A stretch of 48,010 nucleotides of DNA from NCBI GenBank assembly GCA_047618295.1, contig JBLHKL010000003.1, positions 1 to 48,010 on the forward strand. Direction: 5' to 3'. This stretch comes from Gammaproteobacteria bacterium (GTDB lineage: Bacteria; Pseudomonadota; Gammaproteobacteria; Eutrophobiales; Eutrophobiaceae). Numbering within the stretch: position 1 is the stretch's first letter; each line of letters opens with the position of its first letter. Position numbers and translations under genes: made by a program. The notes beneath the pieces were generated by a model. That model ran no database searches. It worked only from the letters and a program-made list of their open reading frames with translations, and was not told where the DNA came from. This document shows positions 17,558 to 30,324 of the stretch, in pieces.

Positions 17558-18178
17558 ATGACAATAAAAACAGAACAAATAATACCAAATGGTTGGTACA
17601 GCCGCTTTGAATTTATCATGGGTGTAGCCGAATTTAAGCAACTTCCGGAGGATAGTGGTGCTGAGGTTGCCTTTGCAGGCCGATCTAACGTCGGAAAATC
17701 GAGTGTCTTAAATAAGATTACCCATCGGCGTTCTCTGGCAAGAACCAGTAAATCGCCTGGTAGAACCAGAGAATTAAACTATTTCGCCTATGATGACAAC
17801 AAGCATATCGTTGATCTGCCGGGCTATGGCTACGCAAAGGTCGACGAAACCATGAGAAATACCTGGGCGAAGTTACTCGAACGTTATTTACGAGAGAGAA
17901 ACTCCCTGAAAGGCGTGTTTTTGATCATGGATATCCGACACCCAATGGGAAAGTTTGATCAAATAATGCTGGATTACTGTAAGAGCTGTGATTTGCCATT
18001 ACATGTCCTCTTGAATAAGTCAGATAAATTATCTAAAAGTGCCGCAAATAAGACGACCATGGGTATCAGTCGTGAACTGGCAGGTATCAATGGCAGTGTG
18101 CAGCAGTTCTCTGCTTTGAAGGGTATGGGGCTAGATGAGGCACGTCAAAAACTCGCTGATTGGTTGTTTGAGGCATGA
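17558..18178 (+). CDS. engB: Ribosome biogenesis GTPase EngB/YihA
   Basis: GRSNVGKSS, DLPGYGYA, NKSD. Confidence 0.95.
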   Translation: MTIKTEQIIPNGWYSRFEFIMGVAEFKQLPEDSGAEVAFAGRSNVGKSSVLNKITHRRSLARTSKSPGRTRELNYFAYDDNKHIVDLPGYGYAKVDETMRNTWAKLLERYLRERNSLKGVFLIMDIRHPMGKFDQIMLDYCKSCDLPLHVLLNKSDKLSKSAANKTTMGISRELAGINGSVQQFSALKGMGLDEARQKLADWLFEA

Positions 18179-18190
18179 TTTTTTCAGTAT

Positions 18191-18314
18191 AAAAAAATGC
18201 CCCGGGCGATCTTTTTAGGGGAAAGTATGCATCCGGGGCCAGAATGTCCCGGCTGGGGAGAACCGGGTTAATTTTTCCTTCTAAGGGAAGAAAAGAAGGA
18301 AAAACATGCTGTTA
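18191..18314 (-). ncRNA. Candidate sRNA with three C-rich stem-loops (ErsA/sX13-type locus)
   Basis: Stems at 18272-18304, 18248-18267 and 18199-18239; U7 tail at 18191-18197; upstream sigmaE-type promoter; no ORF. Confidence 0.7.
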
Positions 18315-18319
18315 ATTGA

Positions 18320-18347
18320 TTAGAGCCTAGGCATGGCAAAGAGTTCC
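18320..18347 (-). promoter_or_regulatory. SigmaE/AlgU-type promoter
   Basis: Minus strand reads GGAACTC-N16-TCTAA. Confidence 0.7.
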
Positions 18348-18461
18348 TGGGATTTAGATTTTGTCAACGAAAAATTTTCGTTTATGCACAGTTTTTATTT
18401 CTTGCGGACTTGTATGACTTAAACGACAGCCAGTATCCTCTAAGGACAAATAATAACGGTG

Positions 18462-18474
18462 CAACATATTGATA
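18462..18474. promoter_or_regulatory. IHF binding site
   Basis: CAACATATTGATA is an exact match to the reverse complement of WATCAANNNNTTR. Confidence 0.5.
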
Positions 18475-18561
18475 TATATAGCTATATTAGATGCCGGTTA
18501 GTTTTTAACAGTTTTGTCATAGATGAGTTAGCCATGGTCTTTTTGACGTTATATTTGTACT

Positions 18562-18596
18562 TAATCCACAGAGTTATCAACAGAAAATGTGGATAA
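18562..18596. promoter_or_regulatory. DnaA-box triad (DARS-like core)
   Basis: TAATCCACA-gag-TTATCAACA-gaaaa-TGTGGATAA. Confidence 0.75.
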
Positions 18597-18694: not shown

Positions 18695-20158
18695 CTATTT
18701 AAGGACCTTTATCAGCGATCCTTTATCAGGTTCGCCTGTTGGATATTTCGCATTTAATAGCCGCAGTTGTGATTCTGCATGGCTCTCTAGGGGGGATTGT
18801 TTAGCTAAGCGACTAAATCGCGTTTTGCTATTTACTTTTACAATGTTAATTCTTATTGGTTTTGCCAATATTTTTTCATCCGTTGATAAAGAATGAAAGC
18901 TTTTTGCGGTTTCAAGTATTGCATTGTCATACTTTGTTAAATTATTCCCTTTAGCCATTCCGGCGATTATGTAGGCTCTTTGTTGAAAATAGATGACTGT
19001 GAACCGTGTAGGAATACTCCCTTGCTTATTGGTGATAACCGAAATGCCTGTATGTGCAGCGAGACCATTTATATTTAATGGCGATTCATTCTCGAGATTA
19101 TTTAATCCCATGCGCTGTATCATAAAATTTCTGGGTGACAGTTTATCATCTGCCTTTTCAGCACTTATTTGCATCAAGGCATTACCATCAGCAGCGGTTA
19201 ACAGGAGCCGATCTGGAAGATTGGTCATATTCCATTTTTGCGGGAAACGCATGGAAAAACCCAGGCCTTCATGGTAGAAATTACGGCCTCGTAAAATACC
19301 TTCTTGAGGACTATCGCCAAATACCAAACTATCAATGAGTGAAATGTATTCATCTCGACCGACATAATTTACTGTTCCGGATTCGTTAAGTCCTTTGGCC
19401 ATATCGATGACTTCCTGAAGCCGTGTGTCACTATCTGGGTGCGTAGAAAACACACCATGATAGGCCCTTGGTTCCCGTCCTTCGGCTTGTGCTTGAGCTC
19501 TATCAAATACTTCCTGATTTTTTAATACGCGGATGACGTCTAGCATTGCTTCCGGGTTGTAGTTCGTTTTGGCGAGATATTCTGCGCCGAGGCGGTCAGC
19601 TTCTAGTTCATGAGTACGCCCATAGCCACTTAGCAATGCTCCGCCAGCGAACTGAACTAACTGGTTAGACGCTTGAGTCATGCCGGGTACAAATATCGAA
19701 GTTAATGCTGCGCCGATGTTTGTTAGTTGAGTTGCGCTATGTTGTCGCACCGAGTGTCTGGCTGTGACATGTCCTATTTCATGGCCTAGTACCGCAGCTA
19801 GTTCTGCCTCAGAATTTAAATAGGCCATTAATCCACGAGTTATGTAAATGTATCCGCCGGGTAAGGCGAAGGCATTAACTTCCTTACTATCGAGTACAGT
19901 AAAACTATATGTCAGGTTCGAGCGGTGACTCTTTGCGGCGAGTTTAGTCCCAATATTTTGAACGTAATTCTGTAAAGCAGGATTATCGTAGACAGTATAT
20001 TGTTTAAGAACATCGGCATTAGTCTTACGGCCCAGCGCCAGTTCGTCACTTTCACTCAGCAGCACCAAGTCTTGCTTTCCAGTAACCGGATTTACGGCAC
20101 ATGAGCTTATAGTTAGTAAGGATAAAAAATATAAGCCGATTAGATGTTTCATTTTCAT
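18695..20158 (-). CDS. M48-family zinc metalloprotease lipoprotein
   Basis: Lipobox-like SSC, NAFALPGG, HEIGH, ExEAD, STHP. Confidence 0.88.
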   Translation of the reverse strand: MKMKHLIGLYFLSLLTISSCAVNPVTGKQDLVLLSESDELALGRKTNADVLKQYTVYDNPALQNYVQNIGTKLAAKSHRSNLTYSFTVLDSKEVNAFALPGGYIYITRGLMAYLNSEAELAAVLGHEIGHVTARHSVRQHSATQLTNIGAALTSIFVPGMTQASNQLVQFAGGALLSGYGRTHELEADRLGAEYLAKTNYNPEAMLDVIRVLKNQEVFDRAQAQAEGREPRAYHGVFSTHPDSDTRLQEVIDMAKGLNESGTVNYVGRDEYISLIDSLVFGDSPQEGILRGRNFYHEGLGFSMRFPQKWNMTNLPDRLLLTAADGNALMQISAEKADDKLSPRNFMIQRMGLNNLENESPLNINGLAAHTGISVITNKQGSIPTRFTVIYFQQRAYIIAGMAKGNNLTKYDNAILETAKSFHSLSTDEKILAKPIRINIVKVNSKTRFSRLAKQSPLESHAESQLRLLNAKYPTGEPDKGSLIKVLK

Positions 20159-28065: not shown

Positions 28066-30324
28066 ATGTACTCGTTTAGTACACCATTTCGAACTGTTTT
28101 GGTGATCAGTTCTTCATGCCTTGTTTTTCAATCGGCTGTCATGGCAGAAGAAACGGAAATTTTATCTCAGGTAAGCATTATCGGTGATCCATCTGCTGTC
28201 TACACAATCCCTGGTTCGGCGCATTACATCGATCAAGAATCAATTAGAGAGTTTTCCTACGACGATATCAACCGTACGCTACGTCAGGTACCTGGTGTTT
28301 ATGTTCGTGAAGAGGATGGTTATGGTTTATTCCCTAATATCAGTTTGCGAGGAGTGGATACCTCTCGGAGTGCAAAAGTAACACTCATGGAAGATGGTGT
28401 GCTCGCGGCTCCTGCACCGTATGCAGCGCCTTCAGCCTATTATTCTCCAACGGCTGGCCGTATGAGTGGTCTCGAAATTTTAAAAGGAAGTAGTCAAATT
28501 AAATACGGCCCGCATACAACGGGTGGTGCGATCAATTACCTATCCACACCAATACCCTTTGAGCAACGTACTTTCTTACGTGCGCAATATGGCGAAGACA
28601 ACGAATACCGTACACATGCGTTTCATGGTAATACTATAGAGACTGCGGCTGGTCGATTTGGCTTTCTAGTTGAAGGTTATTTCAGAGGCGTGGATGGTTT
28701 TAAAACCATTGATGCTGCGCCCGGTTTTAACGACAGAGAGGACACTGGATTTCAAAATGTTGAGCCAATGATCAAGCTTGCCTGGGAGCCGGCAACAAAC
28801 ATATATCAGCGCGTTGAAGTAAAATATGGTTTTACTGATGCTGAGGCAGACGAGACATACTTGGGCTTAAGTACAGCAGATTTTCGGGCCGACCCCAACA
28901 GACGCTATTCAGCATCACGTTTCGACAATATCCAACGTGAGCACCATCGTAGCTATCTACGTTACTTTGTTTCTCCGACAGAAAATTTTGATTTGGTTAC
29001 GACTGCTTACTACAACAAGTTTGCCCGTAATTGGTATAAATTGAATGATATTCGTTCTACCGCTGGTGGCTTGACCGCGAATGATAGTTTGTCTGCGGCT
29101 TTAGCGGGTAATCAAAACGGTACTGGACTGAAATGTTTACAGGGTAATCTAGCCTGTGGCTTACGTGTACGCGCTAATAATCGCGAATACTATTCAACCG
29201 GTATTCAAAGTGAAGCTAATCTTCGTTTTGATACTCCTATGTTAAAGCACGAGTTAACTTTGGGTGTTCGTTATCATAAAGATCAGGAAGATCGCTTCCA
29301 ACAAAATGATGTTTACAATCAAGACTCGACAGGAGCTATTAGCAGTGTGACATTTGGTGCACTCGGTTCGCAGGCTGATCGAGAAGATGAAGTAACGGCA
29401 TTAGCGTTCTATATGGAAGATCGAATTGAACGAGGTAATTTGTGGTTGACGCCGGGTATTCGTTTTGAATATCTCGAGCTAGAGCGCGTTGATTATAATG
29501 CGGGTACAACTAGAGATGGAGACCTGGACTTGTTGGGTGGCGGTATTGGTATCGGGTATAACATTACTAGTGAACTACAAGCCTTCGGTGGCGTTCACTT
29601 TGGTTTTTCACCACCCTCACCGGGCGGTGCAATCAACAATAACCTCGAAGAAGAGACCAGTACCAGCTATGAAATTGGGTTTCGATATGCCAGCAGTAAC
29701 CAAGTACTTACCGCAGAGGCGGTTGGTTTCTTGACCGAGTTTGAAGATTTAATCGTGGTCAATAATATTGGTGGTACTGGTTCTGGCAATGATGAAAACT
29801 TTGGTGAAGTTGAATCCTTAGGCCTCGAATTATCTGGACAGTTTGATTTAGGTTTGGCGAAAGGTTGGTCTTTTAGTAATCCATACTTAGTTGCATTTAC
29901 CTATACCGATGCTGAACAGCAAAATAACTCAAGCTCAACGGATGCTGAGTCCATATTTAGTTTTGGTAGTGCTGGTAATAAGGTGCCTTATATTCCCGAG
30001 TATCAGGTTACTCTTGGTAGTTCAGTTAAGTTTTCTCGTTGGGGTGCCTCTGTCAGGGCTAGCTTTGTGGATGAAACCTTTACCAGTGCAAATAACGTTA
30101 GCACTGAAGTGAACGGTATTGGTAATGCGGATGCCCGATTCGGTAAGACGGACTCATATAAGATTGTTGATATTGCTGCCTATTATGAAGTGAAAAGTGA
30201 TGTGCAAATATTTGCTGGCATACAGAATTTATTTGAAGAAGAGTTCATTGCATCTCGACAACCGCATGGTCCTCGTCCCGGCGCACCACGAACATGGTAT
30301 GTTGGTTTTCAGGCAGAAATGTAG
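28066..30324 (+). CDS. TonB-dependent receptor, FecA-like iron uptake
   Basis: Signal peptide, plug motifs LRQVPGV, NISLRG, EILKG, GGAIN; C-terminal NLF...PGAPRT. Confidence 0.9.
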   Translation: MYSFSTPFRTVLVISSSCLVFQSAVMAEETEILSQVSIIGDPSAVYTIPGSAHYIDQESIREFSYDDINRTLRQVPGVYVREEDGYGLFPNISLRGVDTSRSAKVTLMEDGVLAAPAPYAAPSAYYSPTAGRMSGLEILKGSSQIKYGPHTTGGAINYLSTPIPFEQRTFLRAQYGEDNEYRTHAFHGNTIETAAGRFGFLVEGYFRGVDGFKTIDAAPGFNDREDTGFQNVEPMIKLAWEPATNIYQRVEVKYGFTDAEADETYLGLSTADFRADPNRRYSASRFDNIQREHHRSYLRYFVSPTENFDLVTTAYYNKFARNWYKLNDIRSTAGGLTANDSLSAALAGNQNGTGLKCLQGNLACGLRVRANNREYYSTGIQSEANLRFDTPMLKHELTLGVRYHKDQEDRFQQNDVYNQDSTGAISSVTFGALGSQADREDEVTALAFYMEDRIERGNLWLTPGIRFEYLELERVDYNAGTTRDGDLDLLGGGIGIGYNITSELQAFGGVHFGFSPPSPGGAINNNLEEETSTSYEIGFRYASSNQVLTAEAVGFLTEFEDLIVVNNIGGTGSGNDENFGEVESLGLELSGQFDLGLAKGWSFSNPYLVAFTYTDAEQQNNSSSTDAESIFSFGSAGNKVPYIPEYQVTLGSSVKFSRWGASVRASFVDETFTSANNVSTEVNGIGNADARFGKTDSYKIVDIAAYYEVKSDVQIFAGIQNLFEEEFIASRQPHGPRPGAPRTWYVGFQAEM

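Follow-up and report, generated by a model that had tools for sequence, protein, structure and literature searches.

A stretch of 48,010 nucleotides (nt) from a Gammaproteobacteria genome (contig JBLHKL010000003.1 of assembly GCA_047618295.1; the whole stretch is called the window here) carries, on the minus strand of 18191-18347, a real and conserved gene for a small regulatory RNA. The gene is supported by sequence conservation, by covariation of its paired bases, by a promoter motif of its own and by a terminator, which bears out the central proposal of an earlier note on this DNA. The RNA is a new member of a known and poorly understood kind of RNA, falling below the score thresholds of the available models, and is not wholly uncatalogued. 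We consider it rather probable that it is a trans-acting regulator of ~122-128 nt that is started by sigma-E, represses translation through its C-rich loops and belongs, as a divergent member, to a family spread through the class.

Conservation, fold and promoter of the RNA gene

A blastn search detected the stretch in 17 of 22 further genomes from the genus and gave no match in 18 genomes from other genera. The covariance model R1, derived from 17 sequences of the genus (the decayed copy L012 was left out), matches 109 of the 126 genomes of the order, which consists of one family and is represented by 126 species genomes; the matches, mostly in single copy, extend to 33 of its 34 genera and, among the genomes of good quality, to 71 of 81. 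In a class sample of one genome for each of 150 other families, R1 matches 40 families, and a broader model made from 102 diverse matches (R2) detects 77 at E <= 0.001, 66 of them at about E <= 1e-8. The matches unique to R2 also sit between polA and engB and carry the promoter motif, and we regard them as independently confirmed because neighbours and motif agree. Two unpublished genomes (G164 and G266) are included in the class-wide tallies of R1 and R2, of the promoter and of single-sequence folds, and no claim depends on either of them. In a phylum sample of 150 genomes, R2 matches two genomes besides our own at E <= 1e-6, one of which is of the same class; outside the class this sample gave one weak match only (31.4 bits), without the usual neighbour. 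A pattern scan was also used, in which loci were chosen on hairpins 2 and 3 and not on the promoter. R1 confirmed 40 of its 80 listed loci and 21 of 39 further ones, and half of the pattern matches are chance occurrences in GC-rich genomes.

Covariation was examined in an alignment of 102 sequences, where 94.1% of the cells are paired compared to 78.8% after shuffling. All 24 modelled pairs show changes on both sides, including 10 of 10 in helices 1 and 2 and 7 of 7 in the stem of hairpin 3, whose cells are paired in 100% of cases. The covariation score of 0.387 lies above that of shuffles (0.133) and of slid partners (<= 0.078). An alignment of relatives with a covariation test was among the checks suggested by the earlier note, and its outcome is favourable. 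In addition, an alignment-free check in which each sequence was folded alone yielded three CCC-bearing hairpin loops in 77 of 107 non-redundant homologues and two in the other 30, and the three C-rich loops first noticed in this sequence are thus a conserved property of the family.

The letters on which the earlier note relied, i.e., GGAACTC-N16-TCTAA, three hairpins with C-rich loops and U7, are all present on the minus strand, the promoter elements spanning 18347..18320 and the RNA ending at 18191 (individual elements are listed in Table 1). The RNA gene scores 115.7 bits with R2 and is present once in the host genome. Transcription is predicted to start ~6-8 nt past the -10 element, near 18313, and ~15 unpaired nt lie between that element and hairpin 1. 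A linker of 4 nt (UUAA, 18268-18271) joins hairpins 1 and 2. In most relatives hairpin 1 has a CCUCCC-type anti-Shine-Dalgarno loop, and hairpin 2 is the best-conserved part of the family. Folding of the 130-nt stretch gave -42.6 kcal/mol, compared to -27.07 +/- 3.31 kcal/mol for 200 dinucleotide shuffles (z -4.69), none of which was as good. The stretch is non-coding, because its sole ATG starts a frame of 8 codons and is missing in relatives. Hairpin 3 escaped a simple terminator scan, its loop being longer than the 8-nt limit of the tool.

The motif GAAC-N18/19-TC immediately precedes the model start in 97 of 105 non-redundant homologues (30/30 in the order, 41/45 among pattern-scan loci and 26/30 among class loci), compared to 1.95 on average and at most 6 in 500 shuffles, and it also precedes 47 of the 63 best matches in other families. 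The consensus of the homologues is (G/T)GAACTT ... (G)TC(T)(A)A, the established one for RpoE/AlgU-type extracytoplasmic function (ECF) sigma factors. A promoter scan found no sigma-70 promoter. The host genome has rpoE, rseA, rseB and a gene for a DegP-like protease in a row, and hfq is present. A weight matrix made from the RNA promoters includes, among its next ten sites in the genome, mlaC and a second DegP-like gene with a sigma-E-like motif 27 nt before its start; DegP is a classical sigma-E target, and these sites lend weak support. From the promoter sequence we infer, on good grounds, that the RNA depends on sigma-E. The ErsA-type promoter claimed by the earlier note is accordingly upheld as a motif.

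Several further observations were made on these elements and on the copies of the RNA. The two DegP-like genes of the host lie at G000:C156:140-1576 and G000:C94:2529-6208, one of them following rpoE-rseA-rseB. Between the proximal DnaA box described below and the -35 element, TTGACAAAA at 18359-18367 (minus strand) is invariant in the genus, and no matching -10 element follows it. Many class-level homologues (L170, L176, L184, L193) have an extra small 5' hairpin, CGUUC-N3-5-GAACG, right after the predicted start; four-hairpin folds were obtained for 41 of 107 homologues, and the extra hairpin is missing from the RNA at 18191-18318. The decayed copy, L012:643-765 (genome G019, same genus), has T in place of the C-runs of loops and stems and has lost the promoter motif; its engB, cytochrome c4 gene and upstream spacer are intact, and R1 does not call it. 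Some families have two to four copies of the RNA, several of them in tandem and 100-300 nt apart (G156:C49:43674-44045, G176:C1:1014049-1014460, G272:C1:904216-904531, G221:C1:41942-43698, and G246 with four matches).

Relation to catalogued RNAs

At gathering thresholds no Rfam family reaches its cut-off in the window. In E-value mode the best match, and the only meaningful one at the RNA locus, is anti-hemB (RF02837), which scores 27.4 bits where the cut-off is 49.5 (E 2.9e-4, 651 bases searched). The earlier note had called the RNA likely uncatalogued, and this stands insofar as no family matches strongly, as its proposed Rfam check shows; it does not stand insofar as the RNA is a distant homologue of RF02837 and of sX13 (RF02232), and more weakly of Pseudomon-1/ErsA (RF01719). 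The resemblance to anti-hemB extends over the full length (model positions 1-81), with the same order of three hairpins, a C-rich first loop and a U-tailed terminator, and both are transcribed away from the upstream gene. The difference lies in score, as the RNA at 18191-18318 stays below the gathering threshold and none of the 126 genomes of the order passes it. Elsewhere the threshold is reached by 3 of 40 loci found with R1 (L174, 49.8; L183, 49.6; L069, 49.8 bits). In E-value mode all eight loci examined match RF02837 at 26-50 bits, and the same eight draw sub-threshold matches to sX13 (up to 37.9 bits), to Pseudomon-1/ErsA (~30 bits) and to ar14.

Anti-hemB was defined by comparative genomics in Betaproteobacteria, where covariation was described as comparable in both directions and the strand was left open (PMC1950547). 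It corresponds to ncS04 of Burkholderia cenocepacia J2315, reported as an RNA of 105 nt that was detected by Northern blot, was unchanged in seven conditions and binds Hfq (PMC5688073), and there is a listing for B. pseudomallei as well (PMC3521395). In a preprint of 2026 it is interpreted as regulating hemB by an antisense mechanism (10.64898/2026.09.01.748597). This reading does not fit most of the family, because no hemB was present within the 1.5-2.5 kb flanks of 63 loci from other families. There is likewise no hemB near the RNA gene of the window: in the host genome hemB is on contig C14 and the RNA gene on C3. The sigma-E promoter is another difference, as the published descriptions, in the parts available, mention none for anti-hemB and give it no function.

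Three stems with C-rich loops are shared with sX13, the loops here being UUUCUUCCCUU, CUCCCC and ..UUUCCCCU... The sX13 RNA is described as having three stable stems with apical C-rich loops, as repressing mRNAs with G-rich motifs near the start codon, and as being restricted to Xanthomonadaceae and independent of Hfq; its authors noted the parallel at the polA locus with Spot 42 and alpha-r7 (PMC3771888). In the class sample RF02232 detects a single true sX13 (103.2 bits), and five of its nine weak matches fall exactly on loci of our family; sub-threshold matches of 30-38 bits were obtained on the members in G238, G176, G199, G156 and G025. In the reverse direction, R2 scores 22.9 bits on the true sX13 locus, at a place 162 nt past polA. 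This corresponds to E 7.8e-6 over 33 kb and is below the whole-genome noise of that genome; R1 gives 6.7 bits, i.e., no match. The sX13 model, whose cut-off is 50 bits, has no match in the window region searched at E <= 10 and none in the host genome. Moreover, the true sX13 locus examined has polA but neither the GAAC-N-TC motif nor engB, whereas the RNA at 18191-18318 is not downstream of polA.

ErsA shares with the RNA of the window the promoter motif of the sigma-E/AlgU type (as a motif only) and the orientation convergent on engB. It is reported to depend on sigma-22/AlgU, to form three stem-loops, to occupy the polA-engB spacer and to repress the porin OprD, its pairing region being a long, unstructured and U-rich domain that separates stem-loop 1 from stem-loop 2 (PMC8575079). 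Here, in contrast, only the short UUAA linker separates the first two hairpins, so that the candidate pairing sites are the loops, and a bepA-like gene stands upstream instead of polA. The ErsA model gives weak matches (29.5-33.9 bits) on the members L174, L189, G210 and G169. Over the class sample, which is without a true ErsA, its three weak matches fall on family loci; with its cut-off also at 50 bits, it has no match in the window region searched at E <= 10 and none in the host genome.

Two further kinds of RNA were compared. Spot 42 (spf, RF00021) holds the same slot in E. coli K-12, polA-spf-engB/yihA, and is also convergent on engB. It has no C-rich loops and is controlled by CRP (see PMC3771888); there was no Rfam match to it in the window, and R1 gave no match on it. 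R2 places a match of 11.6 bits (E 0.043 in 33 kb) exactly on the K-12 spf gene (L214:3417-3508), with strand and position as expected, but the score is not significant and does not suffice for kinship. MicA and RybB are sigma-E-dependent small RNAs of enterobacteria, thought to lower the synthesis of envelope proteins in envelope stress; they pair via a 5' single-stranded seed, need Hfq and have no likeness in sequence or structure to the RNA at 18191-18318. NcS25 was considered as a sigma-E-like RNA of Burkholderia, wrongly, since it adjoins a porin gene and is unrelated.

Through intermediate loci the RNA is linked to anti-hemB, sX13 and Pseudomon-1/ErsA. In our reading of these sequences, the RNA of the window, anti-hemB and sX13 are one family by descent, ErsA is probably a remodelled and weakly linked member, and Spot 42 shares only the slot. 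The earlier note had seen the RNA as combining an ErsA-type promoter with sX13-type loops; what looked like a chance combination is better described as distant homology to RNAs already in Rfam. In the literature searched, ErsA is not mentioned alongside sX13 or anti-hemB in any paper, and the names ncS04 and anti-hemB are each rare.

Genomic setting and the upstream DnaA-box module

The host genome comprises 2.2 Mb in 191 contigs with ~40% GC. The 3' end of the RNA lies 13 nt from the stop codon of engB, which confirms the convergent arrangement seen by the earlier note, and genes for cytochrome c4 and then dsbA follow beyond engB. A BepA-like peptidase gene occupies the upstream position, held elsewhere by polA; in this genome polA is on contig C60 and does not adjoin the RNA gene. 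At the locus of a close relative (L081), EngB is 93% identical and the RNA scores 128.7 bits.

Table 1. Coordinates of the RNA gene, its elements and its surroundings in the window
Feature	Position	Strand	Basis and remarks
Small-RNA gene, ~122-128 nt	18191..18318	-	Bounds of covariance-model match; R1 131.9 bits
-35 element GGAACTC, sigma-E/AlgU-type (ECF) motif	18341..18347	-	Sequence; GAAC-N18/19-TC conserved in homologues
-10 element TCTAA, 16-nt spacer after the -35 heptamer	18320..18324	-	Sequence; family consensus (G)TC(T)(A)A
Hairpin 1	18272..18304	-	11-bp stem UUUUUCCUUCU/AGAAGGAAAAA; apical loop UUUCUUCCCUU at 18283-18293
Hairpin 2	18248..18267	-	Stem CCCGGUU/AGCCGGG; loop CUCCCC at 18255-18260
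Hairpin 3, terminator stem	18199..18239	-	GCCCCGG/CCGGGGC; internal C-rich UUUCCCCU at 18217-18224
U7 tail of intrinsic terminator	18191..18197	-	Sequence
engB (ribosome-biogenesis GTPase)	17558..18178	+	Pfam MMR_HSR1 6.7e-18; convergent on RNA gene
BepA-like M48 peptidase gene	18695..20158	-	Pfam Peptidase_M48 7.8e-40; upstream neighbour, in the place held elsewhere by polA
DARS-like DnaA-box module, non-coding	18382..18596	-	Boxes laid out like the E. coli DARS core
DnaA box I	18588-18596	-	TTATCCACA
DnaA box II	18574-18582	-	TGTTGATAA; TGTGGATAA in relatives; 5 bp from box I
DnaA box III	18562-18570	-	TGTGGATTA; 3 bp from box II
Nearly invariant block	18496-18517	-	ACAAAACTGTTAAAAACTAACC; conserved
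IHF-consensus-like site	18462-18474	-	TATCAATATGTTG; fixed offset from core in 17/48 modules
Further DnaA-box consensus	18382-18390	-	TGTGCATAA (TGTGNATAA); ~72 nt before RNA

All 30 loci surveyed within the order have a convergent engB at 10-80 nt from the RNA; 26 of them have the bepA-like gene upstream on the same strand, and none has polA there. Outside the order, neighbours were surveyed at the best strong R2 match of each of 63 families (the 66 mentioned above minus two unpublished genomes and one match at a contig edge). There engB is convergent within 700 nt in 42 families and polA upstream on the same strand in 34, with both in 29; a bepA-like gene is upstream in five. At least one of the usual neighbours accompanies the RNA in 50 families, and the other 13 lack them all. 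Because of these neighbours in the order and in the 63 other families, the RNA is a resident of the classical polA-engB slot, and its lineage kept engB and lost polA as a neighbour, in line with the remark of the earlier note that the RNA was retained beside engB without polA. What is new at this locus is the lack of a polA neighbour together with a non-coding module of DnaA boxes directly upstream, laid out like a DnaA-reactivating sequence (DARS).

Across the genus, the spacer of 350 nt that separates the peptidase gene from the RNA promoter shows 70-87% conservation. Its boxes I-III have the same orientation and spacing as those of E. coli DARS1 and DARS2, whose arrangement has been described (PMC6868365) and was compared here with the K-12 sequence; the triple-box pattern occurs once in the host genome. 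The triple-box core was found in 48 of 132 homologous loci (class-sample and pattern-scan loci), always on the strand of the RNA and 256-340 nt before it (about -277), and the site resembling the consensus of integration host factor (IHF) belongs to the same spacer. The further DnaA-box consensus, at about -72, recurs in 68 of 138 homologues, always in one orientation, compared to a mean of 1.18 in shuffles; it may close the DARS-like module at its far end or, alternatively, serve the RNA promoter as an operator. An origin of replication at this place is disfavoured, because the cumulative GC skew climbs through the window with no turning point. A functional coupling of the module with the RNA is possible but unsupported.

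Proposed action, alternatives and significance

In the action that we favour, a polymerase carrying the envelope-stress ECF sigma factor (RpoE/AlgU type) would start transcription a few bases after TCTAA, and transcription would stop independently of Rho at the GC-rich hairpin and its U7 tail. The three hairpins would then expose their C-rich apical and internal loops, mimicking the anti-Shine-Dalgarno end of 16S rRNA. These loops most likely pair with G-rich ribosome-binding sites of mRNAs, and the pairing would block translation in envelope stress, probably that of envelope or outer-membrane proteins. The trans action, the pairing through loops, the targets and any role of Hfq are all parts that we infer.

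Targets were sought by duplex energy over 3095 putative start regions. With the stems included, the search was dominated by the opening of stems. The top site belongs to a gene for a TonB-dependent receptor (28066-30324, plus strand), whose ribosome-binding region AATCTTTTTTAGGGGAA is complementary to loop 3 in a near-continuous match of 16 nt, in a scan that is otherwise non-significant. Of eight genomes with the orthologue, five retain this match, namely our own and those of four close relatives; G008 has lost it, G022 keeps only 7 nt of it, and in G003 it could not be read. The receptor is therefore suggestive only as a target.

Several results weigh against the action proposed above. The loops-only target search gave 153 sites at <= -14 kcal/mol, compared to 168, 183 and 224 for composition-matched shuffled loops, and the relatives disagree on the chaperone, as sX13 acts without Hfq and ncS04 binds it. 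The only RNA data are metatranscriptome contigs of a relative of ~90% identity (two marine runs of one study), which span engB, the RNA, its promoter and upstream DNA in one piece, give neither strand nor ends and are no proof of transcription; two further runs yielded no such contigs. On the side of the promoter, the top rank in the genome that the weight matrix gives to the RNA's own promoter is circular, since the matrix derives from these very promoters; the strict motif GGAACT-N16/17-TCTAA is uninformative, with two occurrences in the genome and ~3 expected by chance; and no such sigma-E motif was seen in the spacer before rpoE. Furthermore, the covariation alignment was fitted to the model, which favours structure, and the E-values of R1 and R2 are rough.

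Among other explanations, the RNA might work as a decoy or sponge, its loops binding a protein or competing globally for ribosome-binding sites with no defined set of mRNAs. The conserved parts are indeed short C-runs only (CCUCCC, CUCCCC, CCCC) with variable flanks, and the target search without a specific signal would be as expected, as would the many genes with G-rich motifs that sX13 affects (PMC3771888). On the other hand, ErsA and sX13 have direct targets that were defined in reporter assays (PMC8575079, PMC3771888), and we regard a sponge as unlikely. Such C-rich loops have, to our knowledge, no known protein partner, which speaks against a protein decoy as well. An action in cis on engB, as a terminator, a device of transcriptional interference or an antisense RNA, would suit the closeness of the RNA end to the engB stop codon and the convergent engB that recurs in all order loci surveyed and in two-thirds of the other families. 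It is made improbable by the 13 best matches without any usual neighbour and the true sX13 locus without engB, by the several genomes that have two to four copies of the RNA, and by the plus strand, which has no T-run after the hairpin; termination, moreover, needs neither conserved C-rich loops nor a dedicated stress promoter.

The strand itself could be questioned, since the original description found comparable covariation both ways and the functional element might be the 'hemB motif', a cis-regulatory RNA on the plus strand (Weinberg et al. 2007; PMC1950547). We give this next to no credence, as promoter motif and U-tail exist on the minus strand only, R2 scores 115.6 bits on the minus strand versus 11.9 on the plus strand, and hemB is on another contig here and absent from the flanks of the other-family loci. 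It is also very unlikely that the RNA gene is a part of the DARS-like module, whose binding by DnaA and IHF would be tuned by transcription (e.g., through supercoiling), or that DnaA at the -72 box controls the RNA. The triple box on the strand of the RNA and never on the other, at a narrow range of distances, and the single orientation of the -72 consensus would agree with such a role; the module, however, is missing in most family members outside the lineage, where polA is upstream, and of the class-sample loci among the 132 homologues only L193 and L221 have the core. The fixed distance may reflect shared ancestry of one spacer, and the RNA family is far older and wider than its pairing with the module. 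A bolder proposal seems implausible to us, namely that one ancient envelope-stress RNA, born in the polA-engB slot, was ancestral to anti-hemB/ncS04, sX13 and ErsA and forms a core sigma-E arm in Gamma- and Betaproteobacteria, being physically and functionally coupled here to the DARS-like module so as to connect envelope stress with the time at which replication is initiated. The RNA would then be gated by DnaA bound at the -72 box, or firing of the RNA promoter would alter supercoiling and the loading of IHF or DnaA.

A stress-started RNA that represses translation in trans thus continues to be the reading that we prefer, and it bears on RNAs that have been studied separately. sX13 in Xanthomonas virulence, ErsA in Pseudomonas biofilm, porin and drug uptake, and ncS04/anti-hemB in Burkholderia would be pieces of one family, which the models detect in roughly half of the families sampled from the class, nearly always together with a sigma-E-type promoter. 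Most of its members escape the current Rfam models, as the empty result for the order illustrates. The DARS-like module is a separate lead for replication control outside the relatives of E. coli. Anti-hemB would gain a testable function as an envelope-stress regulator, rather than as an antisense RNA of hemB, and the distribution of the family suggests that in most of these bacteria the sigma-E response may include an RNA arm similar to MicA and RybB.

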